64,000 bases of DNA from NCBI GenBank assembly GCA_965232515.1, contig CBDDPY010000002.1:4736001-4800000 (forward strand), read 5' to 3'. The position numbers and the translations under genes are program-made. Positions 15,845-37,100 of the stretch are shown here, one piece after another. How positions within the stretch are numbered: the stretch's first letter is position 1; each line of letters opens with the position of its first letter. Under the pieces are notes generated by a model. That model saw nothing but the letters and a program-made list of their open reading frames with translations. It had not been told where the DNA came from and did no database searches. This DNA comes from Alphaproteobacteria bacterium. GTDB taxonomy: Bacteria; Pseudomonadota; Alphaproteobacteria; GCA-2731375.

Positions 15845-18076
15845 TTAGCGCCCGGCCGCCATCGCCGCCGGCCGCCGGCTGCCGCGCGTCGCCGGGAAAC
15901 GGGCGGTGACCGTCGTGCCCTCTCCCACGGCGCTGTCGATGATCAGTTCGCCGCCATGCAGCTCGGTAAAGGCCTTGGCCAGCGTCAGGCCCAGGCCCGC
16001 GCCCTCGAACTTCCGCGTCAGCCGGCTGTCCACCTGACCGAATACCGACATCGCCTTCGGCATGTCCTGTTCGGCCATGCCGATGCCGGTATCCCAGACA
16101 ACCAGATCCACGCGTCCGTCGATGCGCCGGCGGGCGCGGATCCCGATACGCCCCTCGGCGGGCGTGAATTTCATCGCATTGGCCGCCAGCTTCAGCAGGA
16201 TCTGCTGCAGCAACCTGGGATCGGCCCAAAGACAGCCGATCTCGGGATCAATGGTCAGATCGAACGTGAGCGCTTCGGCGGCCGGGTCCCGCCTGATGGT
16301 CTCGCAAACCTCGCCGATCGCCGCTTCGAGATCGCATTCTGCCTCTTCCAAGACCAGACGACCGGCCTCGATATTGGTGATGTCGAGGATGTCGTTGATG
16401 GTCGCCAGCAGCGCACGACCGCGCGTGCCGATGTCGCCGATGGCTTCCCGCTGCTTGGCGCGCAGGTCGCCGTAGATGCCCAGCTCCAGCATCTCCGAGA
16501 AGCCGATCACGGCGTTCAGCGGGGTGCGCAGCTCGTGGCTCATGTTGGCGAAGAATTCCGACTTCATCCTGTCGGCCTGCTCCGCCGCTTCCTTTGCCTG
16601 CGTCAGCTCCCTCTGGACCTGCTTTTGCTCGGTGATGTCATGCACGAGCTTAAAGCAGCCGCGCACCATGCCGTTACCATCGACATGGGGAATGTAGGTT
16701 CCGGCGACGTCGCGGATGCGACCGTCGGGATAGACGATCTGATCCTCGTAGACGACGGGCTTGCCGGAAAGGGCCTTGTCCAGCCGTCGGGCAATGCGTT
16801 CGCCGCCGGGGCCGGCAACCACCTCGGTGACATGCCGGCCCAGGACCCTCGCGCGTGTCGTCGCATTCCACTCGACGCAGGTTTTGTTGGCGAAGACGAA
16901 CCGCTTGCCCCGATCGAGATAGGCGATCGTCGCCGGCACGGAATCGGTGATCAATCGAAGCTGGTCATGGCTCTCCTGCAGCGCCCGTGTCCGATCCTCG
17001 ACCCGTCGTTCCAGCTCGTCGCGCGCGCGGCGCAGTTCTTTCTCGATGGCCTTCTTTTCCGTGATGTCGGTCCGGATGCCGACATAGTCGCCGCGCGCCG
17101 TACGCCGATCGCTGGCCAGAAGCCAACGGCCGTCGCCCAGCTGGAATTCGACGTTGCTGTCGCCAGCCTTGTGGTGGGCCACACGCTGAGAGACCCAGTC
17201 TTCCACGGCGTCCGACGGAATGTTGACGGCCTTTCGCTCGGCGACGGCGCGTACGAGATCCTCGAAGCGGGCGCCCGGCACGAACAGATCCGCCGTGTCG
17301 GGATTGGTGTCTTTGAATTTTTTGTTGCAGAACACCAGACGGTCGTCGGCATCGAACCAGACAAAGCCGTCCGAAATGTTCTCCAGCACCTCGTTGAGCA
17401 CGTCGGCCGACTTGGCCAGCTTGTCGTTCAGCTCACTGATCTCACGCTCTGCCTTAACGCGTTCGACAAAGGACCGATAGTTGCTGCGGACGATGAAGGT
17501 CAGAAAGGCCATGTACAGCGCCAACAGCGCGATAAAGGCGTACTGATCCGGCCCGCCCGCGACCGCCATGCGCAGCGCCAGCGGTGCCAGATGCGCGGCC
17601 GAAAATCCCAATGCCGCGGCCGGGATGATCGACATGGCGCCGACCGCGGCGGCCGGATTGCCGCCGGCCACGCCGATCAGCACCAGCTGATGCGCGCTGA
17701 GTTCGGGGCTGTAGAACAGAAATCCGGACAGGCCCCAGATAAGCCCGCCGATCATGCTGGTCACGACCAGTTTTCGGATCTGCGTCGGGCGGACGGCGGC
17801 CGCCGGCGGACGATGGCGGTTTCGCAGCCAGCGCCGCAGGCTGACGATCGGCAGCAACCAGGTCAGCATCAGCCAGGGCAGCACGACCCAGGCCGGTGCG
17901 GTGTGAAGGCAGGTCGCCGCGACCAGCGCTGACGCCGCCATCTGCGCCAGGCAAAGACTGGGCAGCATGCGGCGATAGTGCCGCATCTGCTCGACGCGGA
18001 TTTCCGCCTGAAGCGTCGGTTCCGCCGATGCCGTGGACTCACCGTTGTGACGACGGGAGGTGCGACCTTGCCTCAT
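15845..18076 (-). CDS. Membrane PAS-PAS sensor histidine kinase (PleC/DivJ-like H-box)
   Basis: 5-6 TM segments, two PAS domains, ANMSHELRTPLNAVIGFSE, NAMKFT, DTGIG, GAGLGL. Confidence 0.9.
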   Translation of the reverse strand: MRQGRTSRRHNGESTASAEPTLQAEIRVEQMRHYRRMLPSLCLAQMAASALVAATCLHTAPAWVVLPWLMLTWLLPIVSLRRWLRNRHRPPAAAVRPTQIRKLVVTSMIGGLIWGLSGFLFYSPELSAHQLVLIGVAGGNPAAAVGAMSIIPAAALGFSAAHLAPLALRMAVAGGPDQYAFIALLALYMAFLTFIVRSNYRSFVERVKAEREISELNDKLAKSADVLNEVLENISDGFVWFDADDRLVFCNKKFKDTNPDTADLFVPGARFEDLVRAVAERKAVNIPSDAVEDWVSQRVAHHKAGDSNVEFQLGDGRWLLASDRRTARGDYVGIRTDITEKKAIEKELRRARDELERRVEDRTRALQESHDQLRLITDSVPATIAYLDRGKRFVFANKTCVEWNATTRARVLGRHVTEVVAGPGGERIARRLDKALSGKPVVYEDQIVYPDGRIRDVAGTYIPHVDGNGMVRGCFKLVHDITEQKQVQRELTQAKEAAEQADRMKSEFFANMSHELRTPLNAVIGFSEMLELGIYGDLRAKQREAIGDIGTRGRALLATINDILDITNIEAGRLVLEEAECDLEAAIGEVCETIRRDPAAEALTFDLTIDPEIGCLWADPRLLQQILLKLAANAMKFTPAEGRIGIRARRRIDGRVDLVVWDTGIGMAEQDMPKAMSVFGQVDSRLTRKFEGAGLGLTLAKAFTELHGGELIIDSAVGEGTTVTARFPATRGSRRPAAMAAGR

Positions 18077-18165
18077 GCCAATCTAGACCGTGGACTGGCC
18101 GATCGACGACCCCAGCCCGGCGGCGCGGCGGAAACGTCGCGCGCGGGCTCGAACGACTTGCTGTT

Positions 18166-18181
18166 GGGCGCCGATCTTGCC
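18166..18181 (+). promoter_or_regulatory. Possible sigma54 promoter for flagellin transcript
   Basis: GGGCGCCGATCTTGCC has GG-N10-GC spacing, but the -24 context is imperfect. Confidence 0.3.
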
Positions 18182-18324
18182 CACGGCGGCTTAAAAAGCG
18201 CCTAATCGGAGGTTGCTGATCTGGTAATTTTTTCCTAGATGCCGACGCGGCCGCCAAGCATGGATTAACCGGTCGTCAATGAATTTCCGCCACCCTGCAG
18301 GCCGGTTATGGACCCACTGGGAGT

Positions 18325-18413
18325 CCTCGAAACGGCAAACCGTCGGCAACGGCGGGACGCAAAACCTCCGGTCCGCGCGGGTTTCCGGCGTGGATAGCGG
18401 GGCTGTCGAAAGG
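18325..18413 (+). ncRNA. GEMM-I (c-di-GMP-I class) riboswitch, G20/U92 variant
   Basis: GGCAAA-CCGTCG-GCAA-CGGCGG-GACGCAAAA-CCTCCGG-TCC...GGA-TAGCGGGG-CTGTCG. P2 has a GNRA tetraloop, the GACGCAAA junction is present, and P1 is CCTCG/CGAAAGG. Confidence 0.88.
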
Positions 18414-18420
18414 CGTACGC

Positions 18421-19233
18421 ATGGTCAATTCCATCAATACCAACCCCGGCAGCAATATCGGGCTGCAATCTCTCAACAAGACGAATAACGGCCTCGACGC
18501 TCTGCGCGAGCGGCTGGCCACGGGCAAGAAAATCAACGGGCCGACGCCCGATCCCTCGACCTTCGCCATCGCCCAGAAGCTGCTTGGCGAAATCGGCGGC
18601 ACCGTGGCCGTGAAAGAGGGCCTGAACGCGGCCGAAGCCACCACCGGCGTCGCCATCTCCGCCGGCCAGGCCGTCTCCGACCTGCTCGTCGACCTCAAGG
18701 GCATCGCCATCAAGGCCAGTCAGGACGGCCTCGACGACACCTCGCGCCAGGCGCTGGAGACCGAGTTCAACGCGCTGCGCGATCAGATCGGCACGGTCGT
18801 CGACTCGGCGAATTTCAATGGCACCAATCTGATCGAAGCCGGCGGCGCCGGCCTTGACGTGCTGGCGTCCGAGAAAGGCGAGCGCTTCAACGTCGCCGCC
18901 CAGGACCTCAGTGCCGGCGGCCTCGGCATTGCCGGCCTGACGCTTGGCACGGCCGCCGACGCCGCCAACGCGGTCAATGCGCTCGACGCTGCGGTTTCTG
19001 ACGCCTCGGCGAAGCTCGCCGATCTCGGCTCGTCGGCCAAGCGCATCGAGACCCAGTCCGAAGCGACGACAAAGCTCGCCGACAGTCTGCGCCAGGGCGT
19101 CGGCAACCTGGTCGACGCCGATCTCGGCGCCGATGCCGCGGCGCTCGCCGCCGGTCAGGTCAAGCAGTCGCTGGGCATCCAGGCGCTCAACATCGCAAAC
19201 TCCGCGCCGCGCTACCTGACCGAGCTGTTCTAG
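18421..19233 (+). CDS. Flagellin (short, Caulobacter Flj-like, divergent)
   Basis: SINTN..., RLATGKKIN, ANFNGTNL, GVGNLVDADL, QALNIAN..P..L..LF; 270 aa. Confidence 0.88.
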   Translation: MVNSINTNPGSNIGLQSLNKTNNGLDALRERLATGKKINGPTPDPSTFAIAQKLLGEIGGTVAVKEGLNAAEATTGVAISAGQAVSDLLVDLKGIAIKASQDGLDDTSRQALETEFNALRDQIGTVVDSANFNGTNLIEAGGAGLDVLASEKGERFNVAAQDLSAGGLGIAGLTLGTAADAANAVNALDAAVSDASAKLADLGSSAKRIETQSEATTKLADSLRQGVGNLVDADLGADAAALAAGQVKQSLGIQALNIANSAPRYLTELF

Positions 19234-19322
19234 GAGAGACATGCGCGGTGCGGTCGACCGACGTCGCCGCGCCGCAAATGGCCACATGACATCGGCCGGG
19301 CGGACGGGTATGCCTGCGCGCC

Positions 19323-20312
19323 ATGCGCGCGTTCGTCCGAGTTCTTCATCTGTCGCTATGCCTCGCCGTGCTGCCCACGGCGGCGTGGCCGCAGACCGAC
19401 CACGGCACCTTCAGCCTGCAGATCGAAAACGACCGGGTTGCCGCCACCGACCGGCACTATACGCATGGCACGCGGCTCGGCTGGGTCTCGCCCCGCGGCC
19501 AGCCGCCGGCCTGGTCGCAAACGCTGTTCGACGAGATCTTCGTTGATGTTAAGGGCGAACGGCGGCTGGGCTTCAGCCTGGGCCAGAGCATCTTCACGCC
19601 CGACGACACCGAATCCATCGCCGTGGTGGACGACGACCGGCCCTATGCCGGCTGGCTCTACGGCGGCATGGAGCTGATTGTCGAGGACGCCGACGATTTC
19701 CGCCGCGTCGCGCTGGACCTCGGCATCGTCGGCCCTTCCGCCAAGGCCGAGCAGACGCAGAACGAATTCCACGAGCTGATCGGCGTCAGCCGCTCGAACG
19801 GCTGGGACAACCAGCTCAATGACGAGCTCGGTTTCGCGCTCTTCGCCGAGCGCAAGTGGCGCGACGCCTCGCGCTTCCCCTTCGCCGGCGTCAACGGCGA
19901 CGTGACCTGGAACCTCGGCGGCAGCCTGGGCAACGTGCTGACCTACGCGGCCGCCGGCGTCGCCCTGCGTGTCGGCAACCAGCTCGACAGCGACTTCGGC
20001 CCGCCGCGCATCCGGCCCAGCCTGTCCGGCTCGGCCTTCTTCGACCCCGTGCCGTTCCGCAAATTCGGCTGGTACCTGTTCGCCGGCGTTGAGCTGCGCG
20101 CCGTCGGCCGCAACATTTTCCTCGACGGCAACACCATTTCCGACAGCCACGACGTTTCGAAAAAGCCCGTTGTCGGCGACTTCCAGGCCGGCCTGGCGTT
20201 GTTCTACGGCCGCGCCCGCCTCACCTATACCGGCGTCTTCCGCACCAAGGAGTTCGACGGCCAGCCCGAGGCCGACCGTTTCGGCGCCATCAGCCTGTCC
20301 TTCACGTTCTAG
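19323..20312 (+). CDS. lpxR: Lipid A 3'-O-deacylase LpxR family (DUF2219)
   Basis: END...DRHYTHG, GQSIFTP, DRPYAGWLY, GWDNQL, NIFLDGN, C-terminal Phe. Confidence 0.85.
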   Translation: MRAFVRVLHLSLCLAVLPTAAWPQTDHGTFSLQIENDRVAATDRHYTHGTRLGWVSPRGQPPAWSQTLFDEIFVDVKGERRLGFSLGQSIFTPDDTESIAVVDDDRPYAGWLYGGMELIVEDADDFRRVALDLGIVGPSAKAEQTQNEFHELIGVSRSNGWDNQLNDELGFALFAERKWRDASRFPFAGVNGDVTWNLGGSLGNVLTYAAAGVALRVGNQLDSDFGPPRIRPSLSGSAFFDPVPFRKFGWYLFAGVELRAVGRNIFLDGNTISDSHDVSKKPVVGDFQAGLALFYGRARLTYTGVFRTKEFDGQPEADRFGAISLSFTF

Positions 20313-31043: not shown

Positions 31044-31119
31044 TGGTGGAGCCGAGGGGAATCGAACCCCTGACCTCGACATTGCGAACGTCGCGCTCTC
31101 CCAACTGAGCTACGGCCCC
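31044..31119 (-). tRNA. tRNA-Ala(CGC)
   Basis: GGGGCCGTAGCTCAGTTGGGAGAGCG-CGACG-TT-CGC-AA-TGTCG-AGGTCAGGGGTTCGATTCCCCTCGGCTCCACCA; 76 nt with G3:U70. Confidence 0.97.
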
Positions 31120-34158: not shown

Positions 34159-37100
34159 TCAGGCTTGTTTCGCGCGAGCTCGCTTCGGTGTGGTTGAGAT
34201 ATCGGCCACGCTGGGTCCGGCCGATCGCTTGGCGATCACCGACCGCAGCCGCTGGGGGTCGTGGTTCTGCACGAAGGCGGCCAGCTCTTCGGCCGGCAGC
34301 GGCCGGCTCAGATAATAACCCTGGATCTCGTCGCAGCCCTGCTCGACCAGGAATTCAAGCTGCTCCAGGGTCTCGACGCCCTCGGCGATGACCTTGATGT
34401 TCAGGCTGTGGCCGATGCGGATGACGGCCGAGTTGATCGCCGCGTCGTCCCAGTCGGACGCGATGTCGCGGACGAAGGACTGGTCGATCTTCAACCGGTC
34501 GACCGGGAACTCCTTCAGGCGGTTCAACGACGAATAGCCGGTGCCGAAGTCGTCGATCGCGAGATTGATGCCCAGATCCTTCAGGCCGTTCAAAATGCCG
34601 ATACAGTCGACGCGCTCGTCCATGGCCATGCCTTCGGTGATCTCGAGCTCGAGCAGGTCAGGCGGCAGGTCCGCCATCTTCAGCGCCGCGCGGACCTGGT
34701 CGATCAGGTTTTGCTGCCTGAAATGCAGCGGCGAGATGTTCACAGAGACGCAGACGTCGGCCATGCCGGCCCGTGACCACTCGGTCATCTGTCGGCAGGC
34801 GGTCAGCAGCACCCAGTCGCTGATCGGGATGATCAGGCGCGAGGCCTCCGCGACCGGAATGAACTCGCCCGGCGAGATCGGACCGCGTTCCGGATGGGTC
34901 CAGCGGATCAGCGCCTCGACGCCGACAATACGGCCGGACTGGATGTCGAGCTGCGGCTGATAGACCAGATGGAACTCGCCGCGCTCCATGGCCAGCCGCA
35001 GGTCGGCCTCCATCTGCTGGCGCGCCTGCACTTGCGTGTGCATGTCCTGGTCGTAAAGCTGAAAGGTGCCGCGGCCCTCGGCCTTGGCGCGATAGAGCGC
35101 CAGGTCCGCGTTGCGCAGCAGTTGGTTGGGATCGCCGGGGTCGTTCGGATAGATGGTGATGCCGATACTGGTGCCGGTGCGCACCTCGTTGCCGACGACG
35201 TGGAACGGCTCGCCGATCGATTCCGTGATTCGTTCCGCCAGCACCGTGATGCCGTCGGGCTCCGTCGTATTGGTGACGATCACCGCGAACTCGTCGCCGC
35301 CCAGCCGGGCGACGGTGTCGGTGTTGCGGACGCAGGCGGTCAACCGCTCGGCCACCTGCGACAACAGCGAGTCGCCGGCCTGGTGGCCGAGCGTGTCGTT
35401 GACATTCTTGAAGTGGTCGAGGTCCAGCATCATCACGCCGACCAGACGGCCGGTCCGCGCCGCGTTGGCCAGCGCGTCGCTGAGGCGGTCGCGGAACGAC
35501 GTGCGGTTCGGCAGGCCGGTCAGCGCATCCTCCAGCGCCATGCGTTGAATGGTCGCTTCCGACGACTTCCGGTCCGAAACGTCGGTCAGGATGCCGACGA
35601 TACGGCCGGACTTGGTCTTGCGCTTGCTGACCCGCACCCAGCGTTCGTCGCACAGCTCCTGCTCGAAGACGCCGACCGAGCGGTGGTGTCGCTCGACCTG
35701 CTCGCGCACCAGCTCCTCGTGGTTCCGCTCGCCGGCCCGGAACACGCCGCGCTCATAGCCGGCGCGCAGGAAGTTCTCGTAAGTGACGCCGGGTTGGATC
35801 ACGTCCATCAGGCTGGGATACATGCCGCGATAGCGGCGGTTGCACATGATCAGCCGGTCGTCGGTGCCCCACAGCGCGAAGCCCTCTGAAATACTCTCGA
35901 CCGCTTCCGACAGCTGCGCCTCGGCCTCGCTCAGGGCATCGGCCATGGTGACGCTTTCGGTCTTTTTCTTCTTCAGTTCCTGCTGCAGCCGTTCCAGCTC
36001 GTCGACCCTGTCCTGCAGCTCCTGCTTCGAGCGCGACAACTCTTCCTGCTCGCGCTTGCGTTCCGAGATGTCGCGGATCGCGCCGGTAACCAGCAGGCCG
36101 TCCTCGGTCTCGATCGGGCTCAGGCTCAGCTCGATGGGGATCTCCTGGCCGAACTTGGTGACGCCGTGGAGGTCCACGCCCTTGCCCACCGGCCGGGCCT
36201 TCGGATCGGTGTGGAACCGGGCGCGGTTCTCGGGATGATCTTTCCGGTAGCGCTCGGGCACCAGCATCTCGACCTTCTCGCCCAGCAGCTCCTCGCGCGG
36301 ATAGCCGAACAGCCGCTCGACCTGGGCGTTGACCAGAACGATCTCGCCGTCCTGGTTCACCACGACCATGGCGTCGGGCGCCGATTCCAGGAACTGGCGC
36401 GACCGCATCTCGGCGGCCGCGCGGCCGGCGATCTGCTTGCGGAACACGTCCAGCGCCCGCGACATGGCGCCGAACTCGCCGGTGCGCACGCCCAGATCGG
36501 TCGGGATATTCAGGTTTCCGGTGGCCAGCAGTTCCATGCTGCTGGTCAGCTTGGCCAGTGGGCGATTGATCCCGCGCGACAGAAACACGCCCAGCGCAAC
36601 GGTTATCAGCAGGCCCACGATGAATACGGTCGCCGTGTGCCGGATGCCGGACTGCTCCAACCGCAGCGCGCTCTTCGCCTGATTGATCGCGAGTTGTTCG
36701 GCCGTGTCCATCAGCTGACGCTGGGTCTTGTCGATCGGTGCCTCGATGCTGCGCAGTTCGGCCAGCAACGCCGCCGGTTCGTCCGATATGTCGTCCTTCA
36801 CCTGCAGCAGCATTTCCTCAGCCCGGTTGAGGTACGCCCCATGCTGCAGGTCCAGTGTTTCCAACAGGCTCAGGATGTCGGCATAGATCTCGCTCTCGCC
36901 GGTCATGTGGTCGTGATCCGGGCTGCTGCGCAGACGCCGTTCGAGCTGCGTTAACGTTGCCCGCAGGCGGCCCTGCAACAGGTAGAAGCGTTTTTCCTCC
37001 GCCCGGGCCATATCGGCATGCAGGGCGTCCTGGAATCCGTTCAGTTCGATCGCCCGCTCCAGATGCTTGGTCTGAAGCGTCCGCGTCACGATCGCCTCGT

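Follow-up and report, generated by a model that had tools for sequence, protein, structure and literature searches.

The leader of a flagellin gene in a 64-kb stretch of alphaproteobacterial DNA (the window) is a genuine, conserved GEMM-I aptamer, the RNA fold known as c-di-GMP-I after cyclic di-GMP (c-di-GMP), and it has a natural G-A-U pocket. The U in this pocket, U18406, occupies the position of C92 in Vc2, the aptamer of the Vibrio cholerae tfoY leader. It is conserved and old, and it is not an error. The sequence and its relatives make it likely that the leader functions as a c-di-GMP translational OFF switch with a raised threshold on one flagellin paralog. Pocket and bulge positions are given here in what we take to be Vc2 numbering (G20, A47, G83 and C92). 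These numbers agree with the spacing counted on the Vibrio-like aptamer L123.

An Rfam scan of the whole window matched RF01051 (c-di-GMP-I) at 18324-18410 on the plus strand. The match is full-length (model positions 1-87) and scores 60.6 bits (E 2.2e-09), against a gathering cut-off of 35 bits. It is one of two matches above gathering score in the window, the other being a tRNA gene. An earlier reading of this DNA, made from the sequence only, had proposed a GEMM-I aptamer here, to be abandoned if no significant covariance-model hit was found; the strong RF01051 match confirms the proposal. Every element of the anatomy listed in the sequence-only reading is present in the sequence (G20, P2, A47, G83, P1 and AAAGG before the ATG), and so is the A-C mismatch it had described at the 50-89 pair, where the Rfam alignment marks A18364/C18403 as a non-standard pair.

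The Rfam alignment also identifies the bases of the pocket. G18334 is the unpaired G ahead of the GC-AAA junction, A18361 is the first base 3' of GACGC, and U18406 aligns under the consensus C at model position 83. P2 is capped by a GNRA tetraloop, as in GEMM-I. GEMM-Ib aptamers of the 3',3'-cyclic GMP-AMP (cGAMP) type are recognized by A at position 20, which is G18334 in this leader. The c-di-GMP-I-GGC family (RF03167) is recognized by G at position 47, which is A18361, and clan competition left the locus with RF01051, not RF03167. Of the bases that define the c-di-GMP-specific pocket, G20 and A47 are present and C92 is replaced by U18406.

Structural conservation was analyzed with a covariance model of our own, R1, built from the six aptamer copies of the source genome. 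The comparative alignment includes all matches in the family of the source genome, 80 aptamers from 22 genomes, of which 79 are distinct. In this alignment, which was fitted to R1 and leans somewhat towards the structure, 92.8% of the cells in the 79 distinct sequences pair and 12 of 23 pairs change on both sides. None of 500 shuffles reaches the observed pairing and covariation, and slid controls are 31-47% paired. Three pairs of P2 show changes on both sides. The inner P1 helix is 97.5% paired, with G-C to A-U changes, and the outer P1, in which CC pairs with the GG of the ribosome-binding site, is 71.4% paired. The 50-89 pair is GC in 56 of the distinct sequences, GU in 15 and AU in 7, including the same-genus ortholog, which has A-U. 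The single remaining sequence is this leader.

The identity of U18406 was examined in public sequencing data. Contigs, which can hide rare variants, were compared from four runs of three studies (X1 and X4 from one study, the RNA library X3 from a second and X5 from a third), and neither 18403 nor 18406 has an alternative letter listed in them. The X3 contig has four differences, all upstream of the aptamer. One run holds several strains, with contigs that have 11-14 differences in 156-184 nt, all of them at or after 18417. Orthologs in the same genus and in genera g2, g4 and g6 also carry U92. A sequencing error or a private mutation is ruled out by the contigs of the three studies together with these orthologs. 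The claim of the sequence-only reading that U replaces C92, for which it had proposed a check of the reads at both positions, thus holds in at least four genera.

Position 92 is C in 67 of the 80 family aptamers, U in 13 and a purine in none. Leaders were grouped by clustering the open reading frame (ORF) downstream of each aptamer, which gave a flagellin cluster of 15. U92 is found in 10 of these 15 flagellin leaders, the other five having C, compared with 3 of the 65 other leaders. The latter three are L002 of the source genome, its same-genus ortholog and one copy in G010. A flagellin-leader aptamer is present in 15 of the 22 genomes. It has U in 10 of them, and in 8 of these 10 all other copies have C. 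Outside the family, 15 of 15 aptamers from nine genomes have C92. The scarcity of U in non-flagellin leaders and outside the family indicates that position 92 is normally held as C. The flagellin tree has U in both of its deep clades, the first consisting of the source genus and the second of the 14 other rows. Within the poorly resolved second clade, leaders with C and leaders with U are intermixed. Apart from position 92, the U92 and C92 sets do not differ in any aptamer column.

These distributions bear on whether U92 matters. C and U at position 92 may give similar responses to c-di-GMP, with U drifting in flagellin leaders. The alternation of C and U among close flagellin leaders, with at least four changes implied on the tree, is consistent with drift, as are the lack of an accompanying second-site change and the presence of U in the three non-flagellin leaders. 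However, drift does not readily account for U being confined to 3 of 65 leaders of other genes and to none of the 15 aptamers outside the family. In addition, bioRxiv 10.1101/617340 reports, in the portion consulted, that the C92U substitution in Vc2 lowered riboswitch-dependent RNA 30-fold in vivo and that over-expression of a diguanylate cyclase partly restored it. We therefore regard a neutral U92 as unlikely, although it is the strongest alternative to a raised threshold.

Decay of the aptamer was considered as well. U92 and the A18364/C18403 mismatch both adjoin the binding pocket, and together they could abolish ligand binding and turn the leader into a constitutive ribosome-binding site. 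The mismatch is unique among the 79 distinct sequences, and the window copy has the second-lowest Rfam score among the six copies of its genome. On the other hand, the aptamer is intact at every other conserved position, and its match exceeds the cut-off by 25 bits. The 3' half of the aptamer (18387-18416) has no listed difference in the strains whose adjacent flagellin coding sequence has 11-14. U92 copies in other genera are full-length and score 64-96 bits with R1. Decay is the least probable of the explanations weighed here, and we give it hardly any credence.

The position of the ribosome-binding site points to control of translation. The Shine-Dalgarno sequence AAAGG lies within the P1 3' strand, 7 nt before the ATG at 18421. 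P1 is composed of the pairs C18325-G18413, C18326-G18412, U18327-A18411, C18328-G18408 and G18329-C18407, with A18409-A18410 bulged from its 3' strand (CG..AGG pairing). All six copies in the source genome begin with (U)CC...CG and end with CGAA and GG(A), followed by a start codon a few bases later, so P1 contains the ribosome-binding site in each of them. The start codon is 6-12 nt past the ribosome-binding site in all six and throughout the 80 family copies. A terminator scan found no terminator-like site between the aptamer and the ATG, which rules out a transcription-termination switch; its sole match falls within the coding region, on the minus strand (18550-18537). Since 10 nt without a terminator separate the Rfam match from the ATG, control would be exerted on translation and possibly on stability. 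Judged by its sequence, the leader has the anatomy of a Shine-Dalgarno-sequestering OFF switch on flagellin, in which the ribosome-binding site lies inside the helix predicted to be stabilized by the ligand and no intrinsic terminator precedes the start. The sequence-only reading had proposed a translational OFF switch on this basis, and the same platform recurs in the six own and 80 family copies.

A candidate for the competing ON-state structure is located immediately upstream. The minimum-free-energy fold contains a 5' hairpin that takes UCC of the P1 5' strand. This hairpin evaluates to approximately -7.7 kcal/mol, compared with approximately 0 for P1 alone, and the ribosome-binding site should therefore be open without ligand. 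The same-genus ortholog preserves the hairpin and differs from it only at unpaired positions. Because no compensatory change is seen, its role as an anti-sequestor is a putative one.

A CtrA-type box is found further upstream. Its sequence, TTAA-N7-TCAA, has one mismatch to TTAA-N7-TTAA, which we take to be the CtrA consensus. The conserved block shared by the window leader and its ortholog starts at this element, and the G001 ortholog has TTGA-N7-TTAAC on the opposite strand. The strict TTAA-N7-TTAA sequence precedes the aptamer by 40-65 nt in 9 of the 15 flagellin leaders and 9 of the 65 others; L001, L003 and L004 of the source genome are among the leaders that have it. This arrangement suggests that CtrA, acting on transcription, and c-di-GMP, acting on translation, may jointly control family GEMM-I genes. 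A sigma-70 promoter scan found no site in 18050-19400, a result that is uninformative for this organism.

What the aptamer binds can be approached through the bases that contact the ligand. In GEMM-I, one guanine of the c-di-GMP ligand pairs with G20, and the second forms a Watson-Crick pair with C92 (PMC5888326, in part). A47 stacks between the ligand bases, and G20 and C92 are less conserved than A47 (passages of PMC9049102). The same passages give c-di-GMP affinities of 0.011 nM for the wild type and 4900 nM for G20A/C92U. Among the orthologous leaders, position 92 switches between C and U and is never a purine. A guanine partner fits this pattern, as G-C and G-U both pair, and an adenine partner does not. 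The ligand base opposite position 92 is probably guanine, as judged from these substitutions.

The sequence-only reading had offered two possibilities, an aptamer detuned to higher c-di-GMP levels and one re-specified to an adenine-containing dinucleotide. We favor the first. Re-specification would place a guanine at G20 and an adenine at U92, as with 3',3'-cGAMP. U pairs with A in Watson-Crick geometry, and the U is conserved and gene-specific. The pocket also varies within the family, as one aptamer (L107) has A at position 20. According to excerpts of two papers, the G20A/C92U double mutant of Vc2 binds cyclic di-AMP (c-di-AMP; PMC7288161) and wild-type Vc2 binds cGAMP at approximately 10 uM (PMC6140456). 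However, a ligand adenine would not tolerate the switching between U and C among orthologous leaders, and no change in another column accompanies it.

The enzymes of the source genome also argue against re-specification. Thirteen GGDEF domains were found. All 12 that show a GHxxG-type motif have Asp at the base-selecting site, and the thirteenth is degenerate and lacks the motif. Ser or Thr at this site, which we assume to mark cGAMP-making Hypr enzymes, is found in none of the source-genome GGDEF domains. SMODS (CD-NTase) and DAC domains have no matches in the source genome, with positive controls working. The search for Hypr, CD-NTase and DAC enzymes that the sequence-only reading had proposed thus found no synthase of cGAMP or c-di-AMP. 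Three of 31 family genomes have SMODS, and of the 10 genomes with U92 in the flagellin leader, just one (G004) belongs to these three. In addition, the source genome has 10 PilZ matches. With C and U alternating among orthologs, no accompanying change and no such synthase, we consider re-specification very improbable. We are just as doubtful that the U92 flagellin leaders of the family read an adenine-containing dinucleotide from a synthase unrecognized by these searches while the C92 copies read c-di-GMP. If they did, one flagellin paralog would be wired to a second nucleotide signal beside c-di-GMP.

We therefore favor the c-di-GMP switch with a raised threshold, for which the following sequence of events is proposed. 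Transcription would start 20-30 nt upstream of the aptamer, from the promoter with the CtrA-type box. Without ligand, the 5' hairpin (18310-18326) would hold the UCC of the anti-Shine-Dalgarno strand, leaving AAAGG free and flagellin being made. Binding of c-di-GMP to the three-helix junction would allow P1 to form. CCUCG (18325-18329) would then pair with CG..AGG (18407-18413), the ribosome-binding site would be buried and translation would stop. U18406 most likely pairs with a ligand guanine as a G-U wobble, which would make binding weaker but not abolish it. Shut-off of this flagellin is thus predicted to require more c-di-GMP than is needed by the C92 riboswitches in the same cell.

Several points weigh against this proposal. 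C92 is present in five of the 15 orthologous flagellin leaders, which shows that control of flagellin does not depend on a raised threshold. Common descent explains part of the excess of U in flagellin leaders, as the genomes are related and not independent. The proposed wobble pair of U92 with the ligand and the size of the affinity loss are based on what Smith et al. reportedly described in 2010. The A18364/C18403 mismatch, unmatched in the family and beside the pocket, could weaken the aptamer further. Outer P1 pairs are unable to covary freely because their GG is also constrained as the ribosome-binding site. The nearest-neighbor fold alone shows no preference for the aptamer (z-score -0.98), with P1 near 0 kcal/mol. 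The likely transcription start is placed from the position of the CtrA-type box. The RNA-library contig, which extends from upstream of 18150 to 18541, is unusable as evidence for transcription or its start, as it may be DNA or read-through. In the enzyme survey, a Pfam search for DncV-like proteins had no match in the source genome, with a control that was silent in every genome, and the source genome is 96% complete.

The switch would act on one of several flagellins. Five flagellins score above the Pfam cut-off in the source genome, and the window copy is 49-51% identical to the other four. These four (G000:C2:1183046, 1889556, 1890734 and 1894225) have TGGCAC-N5-TTGC-like promoters of the sigma-54 type and no aptamer. 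As the window paralog is the only one with a riboswitch, the switch should govern one divergent flagellin, not motility as a whole.

GEMM-I aptamers are numerous in this family. The 7.39-Mb source genome has six RF01051 matches with scores of 41-69 bits. We searched 41 genomes, the source and 40 relatives. Matches are present in 21 of the 24 other same-family genomes, two to five in each, and the 16 genomes that represent 16 other families in the class have none. The family thus carries two to six GEMM-I switches per genome. Of 150 other genomes sampled evenly across the phylum, 9 have matches, and none of these is labeled as the same class. The searches therefore found no GEMM-I in Alphaproteobacteria outside this family, in which it is expanded. 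This agrees with the statement of the sequence-only reading that GEMM-I RNAs occur mainly outside Alphaproteobacteria. Model R1 found no aptamer ahead of the flagellin homologs from outside the family, which include those of Kordiimonas and Phenylobacterium. R1 matches are present in 9 of 46 flagellin-homolog loci, all of them family-like, and a weak match at L075 (E 0.0079) was left uncounted.

The leader shares with Vc2 the three-helix aptamer, G20, A47, the GNRA-capped P2 and the AG bulge, and there are no insertions or deletions between positions 20-47 and 83-92. Vc2 has C92 and a G-U pair at 50-89, whereas this leader has U92 and A/C. Unlike in Vc2, P1 directly overlaps the ribosome-binding site, here ahead of flagellin. 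The class I switch of Clostridioides difficile flgB is also a GEMM-I OFF switch, in which high c-di-GMP leads to less flagellar expression; according to the part of PMC11477304 consulted, it controls transcription termination of a 29-gene early flagellar operon. In contrast, the leader described here lacks a terminator and would act on a single flagellin paralog by burying its ribosome-binding site.

Other members of the class also vary in the pocket. The 3',3'-cGAMP riboswitches of Geobacter (GEMM-Ib) have the same fold, and a change of one pocket base alters their specificity (PMC6140456, as excerpted). They have A20 and keep C92, whereas this leader keeps G20 and has changed position 92. 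The c-di-GMP-I-GGC family, likewise a pocket variant of GEMM-I, has G where this leader has A18361. A further variant family, c-di-GMP-I-UAU, is said to have been described by Weinberg et al. in 2017. Under the naming of variant families by their three contact bases, this leader would be 'GAU'.

Variation at C92 is mentioned in print (a passage of PMC9049102), so the variant itself is not unheard of. In the literature searched, neither natural U92 variants nor alphaproteobacterial GEMM-I RNAs are reported, with the limit that Table S2 of PMC5041473, which covers 52 natural GEMM-I aptamers, may hold U92. Nothing in that literature appears to describe the association of U92 with flagellin leaders, the presence of U92 and C92 paralogs side by side in one cell, or the expansion of GEMM-I in Alphaproteobacteria. 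If U92 binds more weakly than C92 in the same cell, this would be a natural case of one messenger read at several thresholds. Paralogous riboswitches distinguished by one pocket base would then set these thresholds, and among the genes they control the abundant flagellin would be shut off last. The expansion itself provides an alphaproteobacterial lineage with two to six GEMM-I switches per genome, all with a P1 that hides the ribosome-binding site. Many of these switches lie behind CtrA-type boxes, which would link cell-cycle control of transcription and c-di-GMP control of translation on the same genes. Natural U/C ortholog pairs are ready-made controls for such questions.

Table 1. Features at the flagellin riboswitch and elsewhere in the window
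Feature	Position	Strand	Basis and remarks
CtrA-type box TTAA-N7-TCAA	18265..18279	+	1 mismatch to TTAA-N7-TTAA; likely -35 region, putative function
5' hairpin GGACCC-ACUG-GG(A)GUCC	18310..18326	+	Minimum-free-energy fold; takes UCC of P1 5' strand; candidate ON-state anti-sequestor
GEMM-I (c-di-GMP-I) aptamer with complete P1	18324..18413	+	RF01051; own model R1, 94.8 bits
P1 5' strand CCUCG	18325..18329	+	Pair list, family counts; anti-Shine-Dalgarno CC and inner CG
G at G20 position	18334	+	Rfam alignment; G in 79/80 family aptamers
P2 hairpin CCGUCG-GCAA-CGGCGG	18340..18355	+	Sequence, Rfam alignment; GCAA tetraloop 18346-18349; 98.5% paired in family
A at A47 position	18361	+	Rfam alignment; A in 80/80 family aptamers
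P3 with AG bulge (G18397) and A18364/C18403 mismatch	18363..18404	+	Rfam alignment, family alignment
U at C92 position	18406	+	Rfam alignment; family column C 67, U 13 of 80
P1 3' strand CGAAAGG	18407..18413	+	Sequence, pair list, own copies; Shine-Dalgarno AAAGG 18409-18413
Flagellin gene, 270 aa	18421..19233	+	Pfam Flagellin_N 2.3e-21, Flagellin_C 5.2e-08
PAS-PAS histidine kinase gene	15845-18076	minus	Immediately upstream of riboswitch
tRNA gene	31047-31119	minus	Rfam scan, 66 bits
GGDEF domain	35068-35535	minus	175.7 bits, within a 1045-aa open frame

Several other GEMM-I copies in the source genome and its family have features of their own. L001 and L003 of the source genome were labeled c-di-GMP-I-GGC by clan competition, with scores of 62.1 and 61.6 bits and a cut-off of 59. 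Both carry A where the consensus of that family has its diagnostic G, and it is apparently the P1 columns of the model that produce the label. The source genome has a second U92 aptamer, L002 (G000:C2:5417810-5417906, minus strand), which is followed by a tiny, poorly conserved ORF and then by a 251-aa ParA/MinD-like ATPase. An ATPase homologous to the one at the L002 locus directly follows the aptamer in genus g8 (G008 and G012).

The genes behind family GEMM-I aptamers (L007-L121) include a 136-aa CheY-like receiver, a 110-aa PilZ protein, MlaC and Sel1-repeat proteins. Several tiny ORFs without a Pfam match are found as well, such as a hydrophobic one of 56 aa and an acidic one of 76 aa. 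The single family aptamer with A at position 20, the GEMM-Ib mark of the cGAMP type, is L107:1210-1310 in G024. It is located upstream of a Sel1-repeat protein, and G024 has no match to SMODS, the sole cyclase family searched there. In genus g6, flagellin and Sel1-repeat genes are arranged in tandem, each with its own aptamer (L029, L033 and L094). Two GEMM-I aptamers in G013 (L115:1235-1344 and 1376-1473) lie approximately 30 nt apart on the same strand and may form a tandem riboswitch.

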